Shown here: positions 1,707 through 58,448 of the stretch, in pieces
Layout of the letters: every line of letters begins with the position of its first letter
Numbering within the stretch: the stretch's first letter is position 1
Virus record (IMG/VR): IMGVR_UViG_3300037454_000478
Coordinates: 1 to 58,448 of that record
Length of the DNA: 58,448 bases
Direction: 5' to 3' (one strand)
Source: a virus
Lineage: Duplodnaviria; Heunggongvirae; Uroviricota; Caudoviricetes
Notes under the pieces: generated by a model
What the model was told of the DNA's origin: nothing
The model's input: the letters and a program-made list of their open reading frames with translations, nothing else
Databases searched by the model: none
Made by a program: the position numbers and the translations under genes

Positions 1707-2132
1707 TTATTCCTCCGTGAAAAACGATTCCTTGATATAATCAAACAACGGACGCATGCCACCGAACCTTGATTCACCAAGTTCCTTGAGTTGATAAAGG
1801 GTCGAGGCGATTTGACCACGGATGGAATCCACATCGCTGGAGAGATCGGATTCGTCCTCGAAAAATTCCTTTTGACCGGCCTTTGTAAATTCGAGAAGTT
1901 CCTCAAGGTATTTGACGGCATCCTTACCATCAGCCTCGATGGTATTCTTATAGTTTTCGACCTTGCCATGGGTGCCCTGATAGTGTTCAATTAAGGCATC
2001 AACGAGTTTAGGCATTTCGTCATAAAACTCATTGAGGGCTTTATGGTCGGAGTATTTGCCGGTCATGAGGTGCTTTTTATGAGTTTCCGTCACGCTTTGA
2101 AGTAACGTACCAAAATATTCTTCAATATTCAT
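1707..2132 (-). CDS. ferritin/Dps-like four-helix protein with C-terminal CTS-like peptide
   Basis: ETHKKHL..HKALNEFYDEMPKLVDALIEHYQG resembles phage ferritin-like proteins; ends GGMRPLFDYIKESFFTEE. Confidence 0.65.
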   Translation of the reverse strand: MNIEEYFGTLLQSVTETHKKHLMTGKYSDHKALNEFYDEMPKLVDALIEHYQGTHGKVENYKNTIEADGKDAVKYLEELLEFTKAGQKEFFEDESDLSSDVDSIRGQIASTLYQLKELGESRFGGMRPLFDYIKESFFTEE

Positions 2133-24046: not shown

Positions 24047-25879
24047 TTAGATAAGGGTAGATTCGTCAAAGTCCACCATGAAGGTGTAGTAGTTCTGCTC
24101 CGGATACCATCCAGTATCAACAATAGCGAAGCGGCTGTTGATGAGGATCTTTGGAGACATAGTACCTTCGGCGATGATCTGAACTTGGTCGGCGAGGATG
24201 TATGGCATGAATACCACACCACTACCTTGGACACGGTTGTTGTTGACAACAGCCTTACGGCCAACGCAGATACGAGTGTCGTCCCACTTCATGTAAGGAT
24301 CAACGTAGATCTTGAGGCCGGCGAGCGTACCAGCGAAGTAGAGGGACTCTTCACCACCTTGTACGAGGTCATTCACCATTGGGGCAGGAACGAAACCAGC
24401 GCAGTCCTGAAGTGCGGTGAGGATTTGAGCGTTGGTGACGGCCCACTGACCACGGCCACGGCGAGTCACGGAAGCGATGAGGTTCGAAGCGGCAAGCATA
24501 CGGCTCATGATACGGCGTTGGTGAGTGATAACGTTTTCGGCGTTAGTGTTGACAATGGCGGGCTTGATGGTCACATTCTTGGCTTGGATGCCGTTGATGT
24601 TGACGAACTTCTTGTAAGGAGCACCACCCGAGAAATCGGCGAGAGTGTAGTCAGTACGAGTACCCATGTAGAGGTTGAGGTCAACATGTTGGATAGCACG
24701 TTGAGTTTCGTAGTTGGTTACACCAAGTTTGAACACGCGGTCAAGGATACGGTTGTTGAGAGCTTGAGAGATCTCGTTTTGGCAGGTTTCGATAACACCA
24801 CCAAGAACATCAATACCGTAGAGCGGCATGTCTTGGAGTTGCTGACGAGTTACACCACCGGTAGCTTCGTACGAACCCATACGGACAACCTTGGAGAACA
24901 TACGGGCACCGATCATGTTACCAGTACCGGTCTCGTTCTCGGCACGGCTCATCGGATCATCGGAAGGATTACCGTTGCCATCACCGAAGAAGTTGGAGAA
25001 GGACTGGATGTGGTCAGTCACACCCTTCACGAGTTCAGGAACCACAGCGTAGTAAGTAGCAGCAGCGGCTGGGACATAACCCGGTTCACCTTCAGTACCT
25101 TCAGCATTGGTAGCCGGGGTCTTGGTGTTGATGGTGTAACCATTGATGGTCACAGCGGCGTTTTGAGTACCACGGAAGCACTGTGCGATGGAAATGTTTG
25201 CGAAGTCACTACCGGTTTCACCATTGGTGCAAGACTTAACCTGCATGATAATGGCGCCGTTGATACGGGAAACACCCATGAAGAGACCAGTGAACACACC
25301 GTTATCAGTGGTAACACTATATTCAGCAAAATTCTCGAGGTGTTGAGCTGCTTCATAGAGGCCATCGAGGTCTTGTGAAGTAAGAGCAATGTAGATAGGC
25401 TTGTTGTCAGCACCATTACCCTTACCGTCCATGGCGGTTTCGTTGATGAGACCAAGCTTACCACCGGCGTATGGATAATCATTCCAAGTGAGGATGACCA
25501 TTGGGCCAGCGGCCGGAACAACAGGAACGAGGTCGAAACCGATAGTCACAGCGGCGATTTCAAGAGCGGTCGAAAGAGTGCTCATTGGAACATCACCGGA
25601 ACCCTTTACGTATGCAGGATCGTGGAAAGCTGCACCGTTAACAGGATCGAACTCGGCACCCGGGGTACCCTGTGGGAGCATAGGGTTAGCAATACCCATG
25701 GTGTTAAGCGGAGTCTGATTGATGGCGTTATAACCAGCTGCACCAGGAGTCTCAACACCTTCGTGGATGGCGTGGATCTGTGCATACTGGGCCATCCAGT
25801 TGACTTTCTGCTTGTCAGTTACGTGAAGCTCTTCAGTAATAAGAGCGGCGTACTTCTTTTGAGATTCGTTGAGTAACAT
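24047..25879 (-). CDS. major capsid protein, T4 gp23-like
   Basis: MLLNES reads from the reverse complement at 25879, so the track strand label is wrong; FDLVPVVPAAGP, EISQALNNRIL, RRGRGQWAV, FAGTLAGLKIYVDPY, VFMPYI, PKILINSRFA; strongly biased codon usage. Confidence 0.9.
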   Translation of the reverse strand: MLLNESQKKYAALITEELHVTDKQKVNWMAQYAQIHAIHEGVETPGAAGYNAINQTPLNTMGIANPMLPQGTPGAEFDPVNGAAFHDPAYVKGSGDVPMSTLSTALEIAAVTIGFDLVPVVPAAGPMVILTWNDYPYAGGKLGLINETAMDGKGNGADNKPIYIALTSQDLDGLYEAAQHLENFAEYSVTTDNGVFTGLFMGVSRINGAIIMQVKSCTNGETGSDFANISIAQCFRGTQNAAVTINGYTINTKTPATNAEGTEGEPGYVPAAAATYYAVVPELVKGVTDHIQSFSNFFGDGNGNPSDDPMSRAENETGTGNMIGARMFSKVVRMGSYEATGGVTRQQLQDMPLYGIDVLGGVIETCQNEISQALNNRILDRVFKLGVTNYETQRAIQHVDLNLYMGTRTDYTLADFSGGAPYKKFVNINGIQAKNVTIKPAIVNTNAENVITHQRRIMSRMLAASNLIASVTRRGRGQWAVTNAQILTALQDCAGFVPAPMVNDLVQGGEESLYFAGTLAGLKIYVDPYMKWDDTRICVGRKAVVNNNRVQGSGVVFMPYILADQVQIIAEGTMSPKILINSRFAIVDTGWYPEQNYYTFMVDFDESTLI

Positions 25880-26024: not shown

Positions 26025-26050
26025 AAAAAAGCCCGGTTTTCGCCGGACTT
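26025..26050 (-). terminator. probable intrinsic terminator
   Basis: Imperfect stem AAGCCCGG/CCGGACTT followed by a T run on the minus strand. Confidence 0.55.
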
Positions 26051-26089: not shown

Positions 26090-27010
26090 TTATAGAGGCA
26101 TATTATTGAAGGCTTCCAACAAATAGGTGGAAAGAGGTTCCATACACTCGGGTACATTAAGTGTTTGTTGCGCGAGTTTGATACCGGCCTCCTTGGCATC
26201 ACCCTTTGGAGTACCTACCTCACCCGGGCCTACCCGTATCATTGACTTCATAATACCCACGATTCTACGGCGGGAACGTTCGTCCTTGATGCGTTTGGCC
26301 ACAATATTAATAATGTCTTCGTATTCACTATCCATATCATAATCCTTGAGCAGCCACTTCACATCATCCCAATTATTCGAACGCCATACCTCTGTGCGGG
26401 ATATTTCCTTGAAATCACTGGAAAGGTTTACTAAACGTAACGATAGACCCGCAGTTGACAATACAAACTCGTATTCCTGCCCGGACTGTGGATCCGGCAA
26501 TTCGGTCAAATCAAAATGACGAAATATACCGGTTGGATTCTCATGTTGAAGCAATACACGCACCAAACCCTGGAAAAGAGCCTGTTTTTGGGCGTTAAGG
26601 TTAAGGAATGAACGTTGGAAAGTGGCATCATTCCTCGTTGTAACCAATATATTGTCAATCTGTACCGGGTCGGAAGTACCATGGATGGGGAAACCGCATG
26701 TTACGATGGCACCAAATAGTTGGGCCTTATCTCCTTGACGTTTACCCGCAGTGAATGGGATGGTAACGTCATCAGGTAGGTTATCGAGATAGGATTTGAA
26801 ATCCTTTTTAAGTTTCTTGATATCTTTGGCATCAATGTATACCACAAGGTCTATATCACCATGATCTTTCTTGGTACCGGCATTATACGATCCCGTGATC
26901 GAACAATCCTGAAAACCCGGGAATGGTTTAAGTACTTTCTCAATATAATCATTGAGTGTTGGCTGTACATCACCGCGATTAATTCTGTGTCCTCCTATTG
27001 AACCTGACAT
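26090..27010 (-). CDS. Pol-beta-superfamily nucleotidyltransferase with C-terminal CTS-like peptide
   Basis: ITGSY...HGDIDLVV and VQID; ends MEPLSTYLLEAF. Confidence 0.75.
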   Translation of the reverse strand: MSGSIGGHRINRGDVQPTLNDYIEKVLKPFPGFQDCSITGSYNAGTKKDHGDIDLVVYIDAKDIKKLKKDFKSYLDNLPDDVTIPFTAGKRQGDKAQLFGAIVTCGFPIHGTSDPVQIDNILVTTRNDATFQRSFLNLNAQKQALFQGLVRVLLQHENPTGIFRHFDLTELPDPQSGQEYEFVLSTAGLSLRLVNLSSDFKEISRTEVWRSNNWDDVKWLLKDYDMDSEYEDIINIVAKRIKDERSRRRIVGIMKSMIRVGPGEVGTPKGDAKEAGIKLAQQTLNVPECMEPLSTYLLEAFNNMPL

Positions 27011-27762: not shown

Positions 27763-29097
27763 TTATTTTCCCAACGGGGCTAACTGGCTATCTTTTGGAA
27801 GGAACTTACCGGTGAGTCCCAAACGTGCTTGGTTCTCCACCCAGTATGGTTGAAGGTCTTCCGGAATATCGCAGCGGGTGCTATCCAGTGTTTTCAAGTA
27901 GATATCATATACATGATTGAGAGTGACCTTATCAACATGGGCACGGAGATACTCCTGAAGTTTGTGGTAGTTGGATAATGTCTTTTCATCAATATTGAAA
28001 TTATACAATTCGTTGAGTTTATCAATGGCTTCTTTCGGATTTGTGGCGACCCATTCAAGAGTTTCCTTGTTTTGGATACCTTTATTGTGTTTGAACATAA
28101 ATCCCTTGGCTGCAAAGAGGTGGAGCATCAATTGGGTACGATGTAACCCCTTAACATTACCCGCATAAGAATCGCTGTAGTATGCGAATTTCAACCAGTC
28201 GATATTGCCAAAATTGGTATCAATCTGCACGGTCTTACCGTTGGGTTTGCCATCCTGACCTATTTGATCGAATAGGCTAAACAATACACCGTTGCCGGAT
28301 GATTTCGAATCGGTAGTAATGAGTTTGGAATTTGCATTGATGTAATCACCAATACCTTTGATAATTGCCCTACGCATAACATCTTGTGGAGTGGCGGTAC
28401 GGGCACGCTTGAGCATAGTATTGTAATCTGCGGAGATTTTTTGTGGATCGAGACCCCAATCCTCCGGATTTTTAAGACCGGCTTCATCGATGGCAATATC
28501 AATATCACCGGAGAAATCCTTTTTACCTACAGAACCGAGGGTAACAGGATTATCCCAATACTGGGCGACTTTTGGGAATAAACGTTTGATTTCAGCCAAC
28601 CATGCATCAAGTGTTGGTTTGATATCCTCCTTTGCGATAGGATCAGAACCTTCTCCAAACACATGGCCACCTTCATTGAGGTTGGTAACTTCACAACAGG
28701 TCTTAACGTTAAGTATACGACCTTCGGTGAGGTTCATGTTGATCGTAGGAGTGACACGGCCCACCAAATAGGTACGATCATTATCACGTTCGAGACCATG
28801 AACCCATATGCTTTCACCAACCATCATATTGTTCAACGCTTCATTGAGGGAAGTGGTTTCAAAAGCAACCTCAAAGAATCCCTCTGTAAGCTCTTCGGGG
28901 ATCAAACGTTCATTAAGGCCGAAAACAGTGTTATGGGTATCGTAATGTTCAACAAAATTGCTGACAAATTCTTTAAGCTCGGCCATCTTATTGTTGGATT
29001 CCATGATTTGTTGAATCGTGGATTTTTGCTGGGTATAACCAATACCCTGACCGGCACGATTACGGTTCATTAGGTGGAAAGCGAGATAGTTATTCAT
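27763..29097 (-). CDS. Pol-beta-superfamily nucleotidyltransferase with N-terminal extension
   Basis: LGSVGKKDFSGDIDIAID and VQID; N-terminal region has several L/I-x-E sites. Confidence 0.75.
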   Translation of the reverse strand: MNNYLAFHLMNRNRAGQGIGYTQQKSTIQQIMESNNKMAELKEFVSNFVEHYDTHNTVFGLNERLIPEELTEGFFEVAFETTSLNEALNNMMVGESIWVHGLERDNDRTYLVGRVTPTINMNLTEGRILNVKTCCEVTNLNEGGHVFGEGSDPIAKEDIKPTLDAWLAEIKRLFPKVAQYWDNPVTLGSVGKKDFSGDIDIAIDEAGLKNPEDWGLDPQKISADYNTMLKRARTATPQDVMRRAIIKGIGDYINANSKLITTDSKSSGNGVLFSLFDQIGQDGKPNGKTVQIDTNFGNIDWLKFAYYSDSYAGNVKGLHRTQLMLHLFAAKGFMFKHNKGIQNKETLEWVATNPKEAIDKLNELYNFNIDEKTLSNYHKLQEYLRAHVDKVTLNHVYDIYLKTLDSTRCDIPEDLQPYWVENQARLGLTGKFLPKDSQLAPLGK

Positions 29098-29102
29098 ATA
29101 TA

Positions 29103-29840
29103 TTATGTTCTCTTTTTCTTGTTATAATTACTTGAATTCTTTGAACGCAACTCATTTATGATGATATTTTCAATGCGGCTACCACAGGTTGTTACAGCAC
29201 CATAATCAACCATGTCCTCATTTGCATACATGAACATCATGGTACCTGCACATATTCCATCAATGGTTATGTTGTAAAATACAATATATTGCGTATGCTC
29301 GTTTGGGTGAATCCTGCCCAACATACCCGGGTCAATCGCAAACGCGTCCTCCAGCGATATAGAGGTCATCTTGTGGTTCATTACGGCATCCGTAAGCAAC
29401 ATATCCCATTTCCATATTGTTTCGTCCTTGAAATCTTCGACCGGTAATACTGGAACGGTGTCGCTACGAACACTGATGGATACATCGAATTTGCAGTATT
29501 GATATCCGGTTGAAATGTTTTCGCTACCGTTATGGTAATCCAAAAACAGAATGTAATCTGCATTTGTACGTGGTCGTTCCGCTCTCATCATTGATTTTAC
29601 CGAGGAGTACAAATCGCGGGACTCCATCCAAAGATTTTGGTGAATTTCAAATTGTTCGACTTTATCGTCTTGGATTTCCTGTCCTACACCACGGATTATT
29701 CTATCCGCATAACCGGTTAAAAAGGAAATCATTATAATAACAAGGGCGACAGATACAAAAGTGCGGTAAACCCCCTCTTTACTCACTTTCTTGGACATCC
29801 AATCCACAAGATTTTTAAAAAACTCAACTAATTGATGCAT
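29103..29840 (-). CDS. single-TM protein with predicted periplasmic domain, possible T4 gpT-type holin
   Basis: One TM segment (FVSVALVIIMISFL) followed by a soluble domain with YHNG; role inferred from topology. Confidence 0.5.
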   Translation of the reverse strand: MHQLVEFFKNLVDWMSKKVSKEGVYRTFVSVALVIIMISFLTGYADRIIRGVGQEIQDDKVEQFEIHQNLWMESRDLYSSVKSMMRAERPRTNADYILFLDYHNGSENISTGYQYCKFDVSISVRSDTVPVLPVEDFKDETIWKWDMLLTDAVMNHKMTSISLEDAFAIDPGMLGRIHPNEHTQYIVFYNITIDGICAGTMMFMYANEDMVDYGAVTTCGSRIENIIINELRSKNSSNYNKKKRT

Positions 29841-41785: not shown

Positions 41786-42307
41786 TTAGAATCCACGGGG
41801 AAGACACTTATGTAGGTTTTTTGGATCGGCCTTGATTTTTGCAAGGCGTTTTTCCATATCCTTACGGGAGCCAAACCCACTATATTCGTTAGTCACGTGA
41901 ACTTTGAAACCTTTTGTATCTTTACCGGCACCATCTTTAATCACATCAATGATGAAATCCTTAACATTGTCATCCAAAAACCGATCGGATTTAACATGCT
42001 CGATCTCTAACTTAACTGCATCGCCGTAACTTGCACCATCGACAAGTTGATGAGCAATAACATTAAGGACAGAGTGTGCAAGCGACCTGTAGTCACTGTC
42101 TTCCGGGTTATCCTTGTATTTAGATTTGAGGTCGTTTATAACGGCATCAAACATACGGGGGCCGGATGATGTACCAAGTTCAAGCATACTATATCCGAGT
42201 AGACGATCCGAGGTAAAACTACGTCTTATGATGAGTTTATCCTCCTCCGACCAATCGGATATATCCGTATACTTTTCGTTAACGAGATATTCGTATAGTG
42301 ATTTCAT
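41786..42307 (-). CDS. putative internal virion protein (CTS-like N-terminus)
   Basis: Starts MKSLYEYLVNE. Confidence 0.72.
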   Translation of the reverse strand: MKSLYEYLVNEKYTDISDWSEEDKLIIRRSFTSDRLLGYSMLELGTSSGPRMFDAVINDLKSKYKDNPEDSDYRSLAHSVLNVIAHQLVDGASYGDAVKLEIEHVKSDRFLDDNVKDFIIDVIKDGAGKDTKGFKVHVTNEYSGFGSRKDMEKRLAKIKADPKNLHKCLPRGF

Positions 42308-50105: not shown

Positions 50106-51221
50106 ATGATTAAACAACAAGGAAATAATGTTATAGTTACGCCATCAGGTCATACACTGAATACCTTGATTGACTATAATAAGTTCAGGCCCACACTTAT
50201 CTCTCATGAAGTACCACAAAGCATGTTGGAAATGAGCCGTGCATTTAACGACTACGACTATGCGTTAGTACATTTGTTCATGGGTAATCCCCAGTATTTC
50301 AATTTCTACAAGGAGTCAGTCAAAATGGGACGTAGAGTTATCCTTGATAATTCCCTATACGAACTCGGTGAAGCCTTCGATATGAAGGAATATGCGGAAT
50401 GGATCGAAAGACTTAAACCAACATATTATATCATTCCGGATACATTTTGGGATTCCCAAGCCACCATTAATCAGGCAATGGAATGGATGGTTAAATACGG
50501 GAATGATATCGATCCAAAGATCCGTAGAATTGGCGTGGCCCAGGGTTCCACATATAACGAGATTAAAACCACCTACAAGTTCCTTGCTGCCATATGTGAC
50601 TGTATTGCATTTACATTCAAGTTCTCACCAAAGATGCTTGAGGATCCGGATCTCAAGCTGGATGAATTTCTCGATACCTTGGTTGTTAGATATCCGGGTA
50701 TTCAGATTTCCGGCCCGGATCTTACCGTGGAAGATAAGCAAGCTGCATGTAGATACCTCGTTCTCAAGAAATTAGAAGAAGATGGTGTTATTGATTACCG
50801 CAAGGAGCATCACCTTCTCGGTCTTCAAAACACAACCCTTCTTTACGAGGCATGTTTGTTCCCGTGGGTGACATCCATCGATACGAGTAATCCGGTCATT
50901 AACGGATTCGAAGGTAATGCATATTACTTCAATGAAACCATCATGGGATACGATACCAATAAATGCTTTGAACATGCGTTCATCGGAAATTCCGGCCACC
51001 CAAAACCGGAAACTCAGCTCAAGGATGTGTTTTACAAGACCCCGTATGATTCGGATTGGCAATACGTGATTGACGACATCCTGTATAACATAAGATCCTT
51101 CCGGGAAGTGGTTAATCCTTCGCATTTAACTGCTATATTTAATGGACATCGGTGTATGAACGAAAAATATATCGCTCCACACATACTCGCGTTTATGAAT
51201 GAAAATAACAAACAGGAATAA
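50106..51221 (+). CDS. TGT/DpdA-like TIM-barrel transglycosylase
   Basis: VILDNSLYELG, IIPD, GVAQG, HHLLG, SIDTSNP pattern resembles tRNA-guanine transglycosylase-family barrels. Confidence 0.6.
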   Translation: MIKQQGNNVIVTPSGHTLNTLIDYNKFRPTLISHEVPQSMLEMSRAFNDYDYALVHLFMGNPQYFNFYKESVKMGRRVILDNSLYELGEAFDMKEYAEWIERLKPTYYIIPDTFWDSQATINQAMEWMVKYGNDIDPKIRRIGVAQGSTYNEIKTTYKFLAAICDCIAFTFKFSPKMLEDPDLKLDEFLDTLVVRYPGIQISGPDLTVEDKQAACRYLVLKKLEEDGVIDYRKEHHLLGLQNTTLLYEACLFPWVTSIDTSNPVINGFEGNAYYFNETIMGYDTNKCFEHAFIGNSGHPKPETQLKDVFYKTPYDSDWQYVIDDILYNIRSFREVVNPSHLTAIFNGHRCMNEKYIAPHILAFMNENNKQE

Positions 51222-51949
51222 TGGATAGCAAAGAATCTCTCGAAAACAAAAAGTTGCTTGAAAACCTATACAAGGAATGTGCAGCTTTTTTAGGCCCAAT
51301 ATTGGATAATGAGGAGGCCAAATACGACCGTATCGTATTCATTGGTTCACACGGAACCGGAAAATCAACCTTGGCTAATGAGTTGTCTCGTATACTCGAT
51401 ATGCCGGTGGTGGAAAGTGTTGCCCGCGAGGCTGCAAAGAACTTTACACTTCTTGAGGATGCCGGTGTTATTGAAATCAATAACATTCCGGAATCCGTCC
51501 GTAAGAATGCATATCAAAAGGTCATTTGTTCCATGGCACATTGGGACTTTATGCGCTGGGTTGGCGCAGATGTACCATGCATTATGACTCGCTGCCCCTT
51601 GGATACAATCGCATACGCCATGGCGGATAAGGATATCGCCGGTGATACGACTTCGGAATGCCTACGCAATTTGCAGGATGATGATGAGTTCCTGCTCGCA
51701 CTTGAACGCAGTCTTTTCGTATATCTTCCGATTGAGTTTGGTATCGAGAATGATGGTGTCCGCCCAACGGATACGGATTACCAAAAACAAGTGGATGAGG
51801 CGATGCGTAAGTTGATATATGTGTTTGGTATTGCCCCGATTGTGGTTTCCGGCACGGTCGATGAACGATTGAAGTCGATACTCAAATTCATATTCGATGA
51901 AGACACCGCGAATGTGATTATGAACAACTACAGAAACGAACGAGTTTGA
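51221..51949 (+). CDS. P-loop kinase (AAA_28/NadR-type nucleotide kinase)
   Basis: FIGSHGTGKSTL, TRCPLDTIAY, ENDGVR. Confidence 0.78.
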   Translation: MDSKESLENKKLLENLYKECAAFLGPILDNEEAKYDRIVFIGSHGTGKSTLANELSRILDMPVVESVAREAAKNFTLLEDAGVIEINNIPESVRKNAYQKVICSMAHWDFMRWVGADVPCIMTRCPLDTIAYAMADKDIAGDTTSECLRNLQDDDEFLLALERSLFVYLPIEFGIENDGVRPTDTDYQKQVDEAMRKLIYVFGIAPIVVSGTVDERLKSILKFIFDEDTANVIMNNYRNERV

Positions 51950-52025: not shown

Positions 52026-52637
52026 ATGGAAAAGGTAAACATTATTATAGGTCGTTTTCAGCCGTTCACACTTGGTCATCTCAAGTGTACCCAAGAAGCC
52101 CAAAAGAAACTTGGTGTAAAATCAGTACTGTTGGTCATCAATACGGTTAAGCAGGATGGTCGTCATCCATTCCTTACCAAGCAGATCGAAAAGATCCTTG
52201 ACAAAATGTGTAAGGAGGAACCATCCATTACCGGATATGTATTGGTCAAGAATGCCGATATTGTGAAGAATACCGAGATCCTCCGGGATGCCGGTTATGA
52301 GCCAATCGCATGGACATGTGGTACTGATAGGTTTGAACCCTATAATACCATGGTTAAAAAATATGGAAAGGATATCGGTCTTGACCCGGACTTCGAAATG
52401 ATTGAGGTTAAACGTGGTGATGAGGATATCTCTGCAACCGCCGTCCGTAAGGCCCTCCGTGATAATGATGAGGCGACTTATGTTGGATTGGTTCCGGACT
52501 CATGGAAGAAACAATTTGCATTCCTCCGTGATATCATCATGGATGTTAAGGAGGATGATGCTGGTAACTGTAACCGTTACGGCACGCAAGGGGCTCGTCC
52601 TATGAAATCACTCTACGAATATCTCATGATGAAATAA
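52026..52637 (+). CDS. (H/T)xGH nucleotidyltransferase (cytidylyltransferase/NMNAT-like) with C-terminal CTS-like peptide
   Basis: IIGRFQPFTLGH, CGTDR, ISATAVRKAL; ends MKSLYEYLMMK. Confidence 0.8.
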   Translation: MEKVNIIIGRFQPFTLGHLKCTQEAQKKLGVKSVLLVINTVKQDGRHPFLTKQIEKILDKMCKEEPSITGYVLVKNADIVKNTEILRDAGYEPIAWTCGTDRFEPYNTMVKKYGKDIGLDPDFEMIEVKRGDEDISATAVRKALRDNDEATYVGLVPDSWKKQFAFLRDIIMDVKEDDAGNCNRYGTQGARPMKSLYEYLMMK

Positions 52638-52651
52638 CGCACAAAACTCGC

Positions 52652-52725
52652 ATATAAAAGGAGATCTCCCGTGACCTTTGTAACTTATAAGGGCATGAGA
52701 GATCTCCTTTTATATCGCAAATATG
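52652..52725. repeat. palindromic intergenic element, copy C
   Basis: Perfect 17 bp inverted repeat ATATAAAAGGAGATCTC / GAGATCTCCTTTTATAT; tail TTTATATCGCAAATATG; between convergent genes. Confidence 0.75.
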
Positions 52726-52732
52726 ATAGGGT

Positions 52733-53794
52733 TTAGCTGATTTTTTGCTCGCCCGGGAGCCGGTCGCCTCCGTTGGGTACCTTATAGAATGGATAATATT
52801 GGTTTCCTTCAATTGGTCTCGTTATTCTTGGCTTGGTTAACATGGACGCAACCTGTACCAATTTATCCACTACCAAATCAAGGTCTCTTCCATTTGTCAG
52901 CATCTCCGGTGTTGCATCGGTGCCAAACACCCAGTGAATACATGGAAGGTGATCAAAAATCCAATGTCGATTCTCATAGAGCATATCAAGCAATGTCCAT
53001 GAAATCTCCACAAGAATATTATTTGGGAGTTTGGATATTTTGATAAGCCAATCCCGTATATCGTCACCTTTTTCATATCCTCCATGGCATAACATGATAT
53101 TTGCATGTGGATTTTTCCTTGCCCATCCAACAAGATCATTATATGCAGCATCATCACCAATCCAATAGTGGATCTGTACTATTGGGTGCAACTCGTGTTT
53201 TTCGGAAAACTCAATGAGTTCCGGGATAGGGTCTAAAGGTGTTTTACCGGCATATAGGGAAAGTTCATCCTCGTATGCCTTACGTTTTGGATTGTAATAG
53301 ATAATCTCACCAAATCCACACCACGGAAAATAACTGTTATTAAACATATCCGCGGCGGTCATAACGGCAAGTTCCTTGAAATTATGAGGTTCGAATGCGA
53401 ATGGTTTATTGGCATTCTCATATGTTTTTGTCATAAAATCCACATCATACCCGGCAAGGAATGGATATATATGTGGAACACCCGGAAGCAATTGTCCGCC
53501 GTATGGAAGATTGCGGCTAAACTGTTGTCCGAGTTGATCAATCACGTGGATAGTAATATCATATATGCCGAGTTTTGATGGCCAAAAAGCCTGTGGCACA
53601 AGTGTTTCCCTGCAATCCGCATGGACACAATATCCATTGAACCGGGCCGTATAGAGCAGATTATTCAATGGAAGAAAATGTCCACGGGAAAATAACATAA
53701 CATTATAGTCCACGTAGTATGGAAGGATGTTATTCGTAATCCCCGTGCGTTGGGGAGCCGGTGTGACATTATATATAGTGTTTGTGTAATCCAT
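52733..53794 (-). CDS. amidohydrolase-superfamily (TIM barrel) protein
   Basis: GFGEI, PIVQIH, IMLCHGG, VEISW, VFGTD; no clear N-terminal HxH. Confidence 0.6.
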   Translation of the reverse strand: MDYTNTIYNVTPAPQRTGITNNILPYYVDYNVMLFSRGHFLPLNNLLYTARFNGYCVHADCRETLVPQAFWPSKLGIYDITIHVIDQLGQQFSRNLPYGGQLLPGVPHIYPFLAGYDVDFMTKTYENANKPFAFEPHNFKELAVMTAADMFNNSYFPWCGFGEIIYYNPKRKAYEDELSLYAGKTPLDPIPELIEFSEKHELHPIVQIHYWIGDDAAYNDLVGWARKNPHANIMLCHGGYEKGDDIRDWLIKISKLPNNILVEISWTLLDMLYENRHWIFDHLPCIHWVFGTDATPEMLTNGRDLDLVVDKLVQVASMLTKPRITRPIEGNQYYPFYKVPNGGDRLPGEQKIS

Positions 53795-58244: not shown

Positions 58245-58448
58245 ATGAAAAAGGTACTTCTTACAATATTATCATCAAATCAGGATATATACCGTGAGTT
58301 GACAGAGGTTCAGGTAAAGGGGTATGAAATGTGGTTGGAACAACAACCCATGGATATCGATATACTTGTATATACCGCCGGTGAAAAAACCGAATTGGTT
58401 GGTAATACACCATATGTGGCATGTGATGACAGTAGTATATATGCGAAA
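58245..58448 (+). CDS. partial ORF running off the window, possibly a glycosyltransferase
   Basis: MKKVLLTILSS...YVACDDSSIYAK; resemblance to GT-A N-termini is weak. Confidence 0.4.
   Translation, partial: MKKVLLTILSSNQDIYRELTEVQVKGYEMWLEQQPMDIDILVYTAGEKTELVGNTPYVACDDSSIYAK

Follow-up and report, generated by a model that had tools for sequence, protein, structure and literature searches.

A large, uncultured T4-like phage raises the question why a short peptide that begins about 27 open reading frames (ORFs) of its genome also stands at the C-terminal end of three others. The DNA analyzed here, 58,448 nucleotides and hereafter the window, makes up the first 58 kb of G000, a record of 152 kb that is estimated to be 68% complete. 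The initial annotation suggested that the peptide may be a position-independent, scaffold-binding tag that is shuffled as a cassette onto enzymes and recruits them into the phage head.

Three proteins end in a leader-like peptide

The three ORFs are real, and each of them ends in frame with a leader-like peptide as had been described. The tags start at positions 1757 (minus strand), 26143 (minus strand), and 52602 (plus strand). Their first residues are 126 of 141, 290 of 306, and 193 of 203, respectively, i.e., none of them is N-terminal. The genes and their 3′ elements are as follows (a slash marks the putative cut).

1707–2132, minus strand: DUF5856 helical-bundle protein of the T4 rI.-1 family, 141 aa, with C-terminal tag (PF19174, phrog_858)
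1728–1757, minus strand: DUF5856 C-terminal tag M-R-P-L-F-D-Y-I-K-E, residues 126–135 (matrix score 18.4)
1773–1781, minus strand: candidate protease site L-G-E/S shortly before the DUF5856 tag; E120 does not vary among the aligned sequences
1658–1687, no strand assigned: two-way terminator hairpin directly 3′ of the DUF5856 gene
26090–27010, minus strand: NT1, a Pol-X-like (pol-beta superfamily) nucleotidyltransferase, 306 aa, with C-terminal tag (AlphaFold/Foldseek, motifs)
26114–26143, minus strand: NT1 C-terminal tag M-E-P-L-S-T-Y-L-L-E, residues 290–299, followed by seven residues (score 8.0)
26147–26155, minus strand: candidate protease site V-P-E/C before the NT1 tag; [VI]-x-E and a following S/G are kept in homologues
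26029–26050, minus strand: terminator hairpin 3′ of NT1
52026–52637, plus strand: NMNAT-like cytidylyltransferase, 203 aa, with C-terminal tag (PF01467, phrog_395)
52602–52634, plus strand: cytidylyltransferase C-terminal tag, residues 193–203 (score 17.8)
52545–52553, plus strand: candidate protease site V-K-E/D upstream of the cytidylyltransferase tag, followed by a G-N-[QC]-N-R-type linker
52644–52734, no strand assigned: long terminator-like hairpin 3′ of the cytidylyltransferase gene (−41.6 kcal/mol, z −7.4)
41786–42307, minus strand: ordinary N-terminal leader gene used for DNA comparison

The tag consensus is (M or hydrophobic)-(K/R)-(S/P)-L-x-(D/E)-Y-(I/L)-x-E. The DUF5856 tag ends with I-K-E, followed by six residues and the stop codon, and the NT1 tag with L-L-E; the cytidylyltransferase tag has no Glu at its position 10 and is followed immediately by the stop codon. 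A Met-independent scoring matrix, derived from 26 N-terminal leaders found across all 152 kb, was applied in a six-frame scan of the record. All hits scoring at least 17.8 were ORF starts, except the C-terminal tags at 1757 (18.4) and 52602 (17.8). The random rate at a score of 17.8 was 4e-7 per position, i.e., about 0.002 hits are expected in the last 20 residues of ~250 genes. The NT1 tail with its score of 8.0 is not significant alone; in its homologues, clear consensus tags are aligned with it.

The DUF5856 protein matched Pfam PF19174 (E 1.8e-18, 67.8 bits, cut-off 34.6) and phrog_858 (E 3e-26), with both matches confined to residues 2–118. By tblastn, it was found in 1267 T4-like phage records, with RB16 rI.-1 lying under one match. 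An AlphaFold model shows a bundle (residues 1–119), a disordered linker (120–127, pLDDT below 50), and the tag as a detached, low-confidence helix (129–138). Foldseek gave CopM and Dps as best matches (E at least 0.17, TM 0.5–0.6), i.e., a weak similarity to the Dps/ferritin/CopM fold. The label “enzyme-like” that this protein had received is hence doubtful, and in one cultured phage it is a module of a head-protease polyprotein (see below).

NT1 was modeled with a pLDDT of 88, and Foldseek matched it with Pol lambda and Pol mu (E 2e-6). It carries G-S and D-x-D motifs; its Pfam score is below the cut-off (19.2 vs 21). In the model the domain is followed by coil and then by a lower-confidence helix at 293–302. 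A flexible linker had been proposed in front of each tag, and the AlphaFold models bear this out for two of the three proteins, DUF5856 and NT1. The cytidylyltransferase was assigned by PF01467 (25.6 bits vs a cut-off of 21) and phrog_395 (E 2.5e-14); its nucleotide-binding motif, which comes after G-R-F-Q-P-F, reads T-L-G-H in place of H-x-G-H.

At the DNA level, the reported near-identity was confirmed: the cytidylyltransferase tag shares 23 of 24 bases with the leader at 42307. This near-identity arises because the residues are identical and codon usage is biased. Recent DNA exchange was rejected as its source, since the leader at 134982 matches at 22 of 24 positions and the bases upstream are unrelated. 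The other leaders match at 13–20 of 24. Among leaders, Leu4 is written with five codons, so conservation acts at the protein level; Ile/Leu8 is likewise written with five.

The tail is conserved and bracketed by putative cleavage sites

We collected 78 DUF5856, 120 NT1, and 120 cytidylyltransferase homologues. The strict matrix at a threshold of 10 called many diverged or very terminal homologue tags “none”; the tag state of homologues was classed by a core pattern anchored behind the domain. Alignment of homologues, the check that the initial annotation had asked for, showed that the tail is conserved while the adjoining linker drifts: the tail is kept down to ~50% identity in all three families, in more than 50 homologues per family; between domain and tag, the linker differs both in length (0 to 12 residues) and in sequence. 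In each of the three families, C-terminal as well as internal tags yield the consensus of the N-terminal leaders. Positions L4 and Y7 are best kept, followed by Ile/Leu8 and Glu10. In an alignment of 37 DUF5856 homologues, L129 and E135 are at least 90% conserved, and S-L-Y-E-Y-L is kept at 78–99% identity in the cytidylyltransferase clade.

Each tag was said to keep its Met. This holds for all three copies here; among homologues, Met is found in 53% of the DUF5856, 47% of the NT1, and 82% of the cytidylyltransferase tags and is mostly replaced by other hydrophobics (L, I, V, F, Y). We hence regard this residue as part of a hydrophobic face and not as a surviving start codon. The tag Met as start of a separate micro-ORF was rejected because Met is not conserved.

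A [LIVMF]-x-E motif was found at most 22 residues upstream of the tag in 73 of 75 DUF5856, 84 of 101 NT1, and 76 of 77 cytidylyltransferase homologues. With this conserved hydrophobic-x-Glu upstream, the tag is flanked by two sites in keeping with the L/I-x-E rule of gp21-type proteases. In the DUF5856 protein, L-G-E/S is collinear with the L-N-E/S joint after the DUF5856 module in the protease polyprotein of Chryseobacterium phage MA9V-2. The domain bodies were not depleted of hydrophobic-x-E sites (17 observed, 14 expected).

The invariant NT1 N-terminus, S-G-S-I-G-G, is reached in three ways: it follows the start Met immediately, comes behind an N-terminal tag whose last residue is Glu (P0188, P0194–P0198, and the IMG/VR record G001), or comes behind an L-x-E joint in single-chain forms. 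These three routes are the best indirect sign, as read from the sequences, that cutting after Glu really occurs in these phages. The three tagged proteins have a partner.

27763–29097, minus strand: NT2, second nucleotidyltransferase, 444 aa, with an N-terminal region of ~142 residues

This N-terminal region of NT2 holds a tag-like element near residue 38 (~28948–28986) and six hydrophobic-x-E-[SGA] sites. The last of these directly precedes G-G-H-V-F-G, the predicted mature start, which is also the module start in G001 and in single-chain forms. The region looks like a long propeptide with multiple cuts.

The tag changes its position and marks joints between modules

The tag position INDEPENDENCE: it is C-terminal in most NT1 and cytidylyltransferase relatives and N-terminal in some. 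In others the tag lies between the enzyme and a further domain (some), is doubled in tandem (a few), or is absent (some). A tree built from only the cytidylyltransferase domain requires no fewer than seven changes of tag state and the NT1 tree no fewer than 11; in the latter, N-tagged forms make up one clade. Tag-less NT1 forms, among them P0187 and P0168, arise repeatedly, and the tag is hence dispensable for the enzymes themselves.

Across the three families, at least 25 unrelated extension domains were found behind the tag. In eight cytidylyltransferases, the extension is a homologue of a gene that stands alone in the present genome and has its own leader (142817–143203 of the record). Residues 189–309 of P0283 align with residues 1–126 of the encoded protein (E 5e-33), and the alignment begins exactly at the tag Met. 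A separate leader gene, located immediately downstream of NT1 in G001, matches the extension of P0186. From these matches we conclude that internal tag, C-terminal tag, and N-terminal leader are one element in three contexts, and the tails probably share history with the leaders of downstream genes. The proposed position independence and cassette-like shuffling are thus well supported by sequence comparison, with the tag found C-terminally, N-terminally, between modules, or not at all.

In the cytidylyltransferase, the linker E-D-(D)-A-G-N-[QC]-N-R-Y (52551–52583, plus strand) recurs in distant clades of the family and in one DUF5856 protein (P0016). This recurrence hints that linker and tag may move together.

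The tagged proteins are linked to each other and to head genes

In marine phages, cytidylyltransferase, NT2, and NT1 are joined in one chain of 851 residues with only three hydrophobic-x-E-[SGA] sites, all of them at module joints. The single chains of leaderless marine phages have these joints and no recognisable tag; they are either targeted in another way or not packaged. P0300 is a fusion of cytidylyltransferase and DUF5856, and NT1 is fused with an HxGH-type transferase in other phages, including Flavobacterium phage immuto. Chains of 700–900 residues (immuto gp088, L002:4001–6724, and loci L007–L010) combine NT1, the HxGH-type transferase (P-P-H-x-x-H), and an H-E-x-x-H domain; immuto gp088 is annotated merely as NMNAT/NadR. 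Judged from fusion and gene order, DUF5856, NT1, the NMNAT-like transferase, and NT2 are one functional set and no random sample of proteins; the set is fused elsewhere and encoded by separate genes here.

The pairing of DUF5856 with a nucleotidyl- or cytidyltransferase looks old among T4-like phages. In T4 (L036, 55435–59205), DUF5856 is rI.-1 and lies within a few kb of nrdC.11, which is annotated as a nucleotidyltransferase, and in RB16 (L035) rI.-1 is two genes away from a cytidyltransferase. The DUF5856 proteins of T4 and RB16 are without C-terminal tag, and to our knowledge rI.-1 of these phages is not a known virion protein.

In this phage, NT1 is directly upstream of the major capsid gene and follows NT2 and two small leader genes.

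24047–25879, minus strand: gp23-type major capsid protein (Pfam Gp23, E 1.8e-22)
25757–25768, minus strand: candidate capsid maturation site I-H-E/G, residues 38–41 (motif)

A T4-type portal is encoded further along the record (138388–139659, Portal_T4, E 1e-75). The nearest cultured relatives of the capsid protein, at ~30% identity, are those of Sphingomonas phage PAU, Tenacibaculum phage pT24, the Lak phages, and Chryseobacterium phage MA9V-2. A DNA search with the capsid/NT1 region against cultured phages gave no match. The search for related loci with the single NT1 protein as query likewise gave none; they were recovered with the alignment as query.

Two relatives connect the set with the head protease. 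G001 has the three enzyme genes side by side, each with a tag, at a distance of ~8 kb upstream of the capsid gene and a probable protease-scaffold fusion. In MA9V-2 (L003:4862–8485), a 1207-residue gene between portal and capsid consists of Peptidase_S77, DUF5856, and further segments and contains ~19 [IL]-N-E/S sites, i.e., the same ending as the leaders of the phage studied here; it is annotated as protease only. The G001 gene (131382–133082, L031; 566 residues), which immediately precedes the capsid gene, encodes Peptidase_S77 together with an acidic repeat region of at least six copies of a unit like N-W-V-x-E-E-F-A-P-E-V-Q and is probably a protease-scaffold fusion. Peptidase_S77 was present in four of four related records tested. 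In the 68%-complete record of our phage, neither a profile search nor tblastn with the proteases of G001 and MA9V-2 found it, and no scaffold gene was recognised there. The 245-aa ORF upstream of NT2 (29103–29840) was rejected as scaffold, as it has no family match and is unlike a scaffold.

Relation to known targeting and cargo peptides

The capsid-targeting sequence (CTS) of T4 internal proteins was reportedly described by Mullaney and Black in 1996. In IPII and IPIII it reads M-K-T-Y-Q-E-F-I-A-E (PMC9026906, PMC8442874). Targeting depends on positions 4 and 7, processing on positions 8 and 10; Asp at position 10 stops processing but not targeting (PMC9026906). The tag described here is like the T4 CTS in its ten residues, consensus, best-kept positions 4 and 7, and I/L-x-E ending, and in its occurrence on unrelated proteins of a phage with gp23-type capsid and gp20-type portal. 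Glu10 was lost in 37 of 77 cytidylyltransferases, in the clade that ends at the tag, while positions 4, 7, and 8 were kept. By analogy, this fits the T4 tag, whose position 10 is used for processing but not for targeting.

In the papers cited here, T4-type targeting propeptides are N-terminal; exceptions are the C-terminal processing of T4 gp21 and Alt (PMC9026906, PMC10052503, PMC7411985). The protease of SPN3US has a C-terminal packaging signal (PMC7411985), and a C-terminal targeting region of the HK97 prohead protease is described by Duda et al. 2013, as cited in PMC7411985. In these proteins, as proposed here, a C-terminal part of a head protein is removed by the protease or needed for prohead incorporation. 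Unlike the tag, these regions are longer, protein-specific, not portable, and not copies of an N-terminal CTS. In contrast to the T4 CTS, which is known only from the N-terminus, the tags lie C-terminally after a linker that is preceded by a second, putative cut site, and in relatives also between modules. A portable C-terminal or internal copy of a T4-type tag would be new, as the targeting propeptides described in the cited papers are N-terminal.

Encapsulin cargo-loading peptides are short peptides on a C-terminal tether, sometimes N-terminal, that direct enzymes into a shell of the HK97 fold. The analogy extends to the flexible C-terminal tether and to the cargo, which includes four-helix-bundle (ferritin-like) proteins. 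Unlike the phage tag, however, the encapsulin peptide has an unrelated motif, binds the shell and not a scaffold, and is not removed by a protease. Moreover, encapsulin systems, unlike phage heads, are without DNA and injection. We saw no encapsulin-type motif in the tails read from homologues of the three families.

A working C-terminal targeting sequence as the proposed explanation

From the comparison of homologues and the analogy with T4, we propose, with a probability of roughly 0.6, that the tails are working C-terminal copies of the phage's T4-type CTS that also serve as a joint for gene fusion and fission. As far as the sequences indicate, the tag probably works wherever it is placed in a protein. 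The tail module would comprise a hydrophobic-x-Glu site, a variable disordered linker, an amphipathic ten-residue helix, and nought to few further residues. During prohead building the helix would bind the scaffolding core, and the protein would become enclosed. A gp21-type head protease would then cut at the upstream Glu and, where anything follows the tag, a second time after the tag's own Glu. Cleavage would free the protein inside the head, from which it may exit with the DNA at infection. We infer the whole sequence of steps, from core binding and packaging to cutting and injection, by analogy with T4. In evolution, the C-terminal tag would be a joint with nothing behind it, at which genes fuse and split, and with the genes separate as in this phage, each piece of the enzyme set would bear its own address.

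Among the alternatives, the tail might be selected for docking between the enzymes or to a cytoplasmic hub, or as a removable inactivating propeptide. In favor of this, the proteins with tags are precisely the ones joined into a single chain in other phages, and the tag forms an amphipathic helix at the end of a flexible tether. We nevertheless consider this unlikely, since the same peptide starts ~27 unrelated proteins, closely matches the T4 CTS, and ends in a head-protease motif. In addition, DUF5856 occurs within a head-protease polyprotein, and gp21-type proteases act inside proheads (PMC9026906). Far less probable are neutral remnants, i.e., leaders of lost downstream genes joined in frame by chance. 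This would explain why all three tagged genes are the last of their own transcription unit with a terminator hairpin immediately 3′, why fused forms with a downstream module exist, and why Met is kept in this genome. Yet the conservation of the tail in all three families next to a drifting linker contradicts functionless relics, the case that the initial annotation named as refuting its proposal. The exchange of Met for other hydrophobics and the co-conserved upstream Glu site speak against remnants as well, and the sequence upstream of the tag is coding-like and not an AT-rich intergenic spacer.

We give hardly any credence to the repeat as a DNA or RNA element (a recombination site, translation-start signal, or regulator site) with the peptide as by-product. 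The 23 of 24 bases shared with the 42307 leader would suit such an element, and fusion and fission at the tag suggest recombination there. But this match follows from identical residues and codon bias, with differing bases upstream, and other leaders share only 13–20 of 24 bases; Leu4 and Ile/Leu8 are each written with five codons, and it is the residues and not the bases that are conserved across relatives.

Returning to the tail as a working targeting sequence, a wider reading is tentative, and we would place it slightly below even odds. Here the T4-type tag would be an orientation-free address label and a universal joint, by which an injected enzyme kit is re-sorted through gene fusion and breakage, and C-terminal tagging would package enzymes whose N-terminus is constrained. 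The proposed kit would comprise the NAD-making transferase, two Pol-X-like nucleotidyltransferases, and the Dps-like bundle.

If the tag works C-terminally or internally, the rule for T4-type head loading would be simpler and more general than the model of an N-terminal propeptide. It would be usable for packaging proteins whose N-terminus must stay free, and cargo would become predictable from sequence in uncultured phages. The nucleotide-handling set (NMNAT-like and Pol-X-like transferases, DUF5856) would reach the host as finished proteins along with the DNA; as a speculation, it could plausibly counter host NAD depletion or RNA damage. Evolution of phage cargo genes might then be pictured as fusion and fission at a ten-residue joint.

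Further features of the window

In the capsid protein, I-H-E/G precedes a G-Y-N-A-x-N stretch and is a plausible maturation cut resembling that of T4 gp23. An ORF that runs off the window end (58245–58448 and onward, past position 58449 of the record, plus strand) contains a tag-like peptide (score 16.9) ~68 residues past its first Met with 213 residues after it, which may be an internal tag or a chance match.

The long hairpin at 52644–52734 lies between the cytidylyltransferase gene and a convergent gene for a 353-aa protein. The gene just upstream of the cytidylyltransferase (51221–51949, plus strand) has no tag and encodes an AAA_28 P-loop domain (E 1.9e-17), the kinase domain family of NadR. 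Together the two genes look like a split NadR, i.e., kinase and NMNAT.
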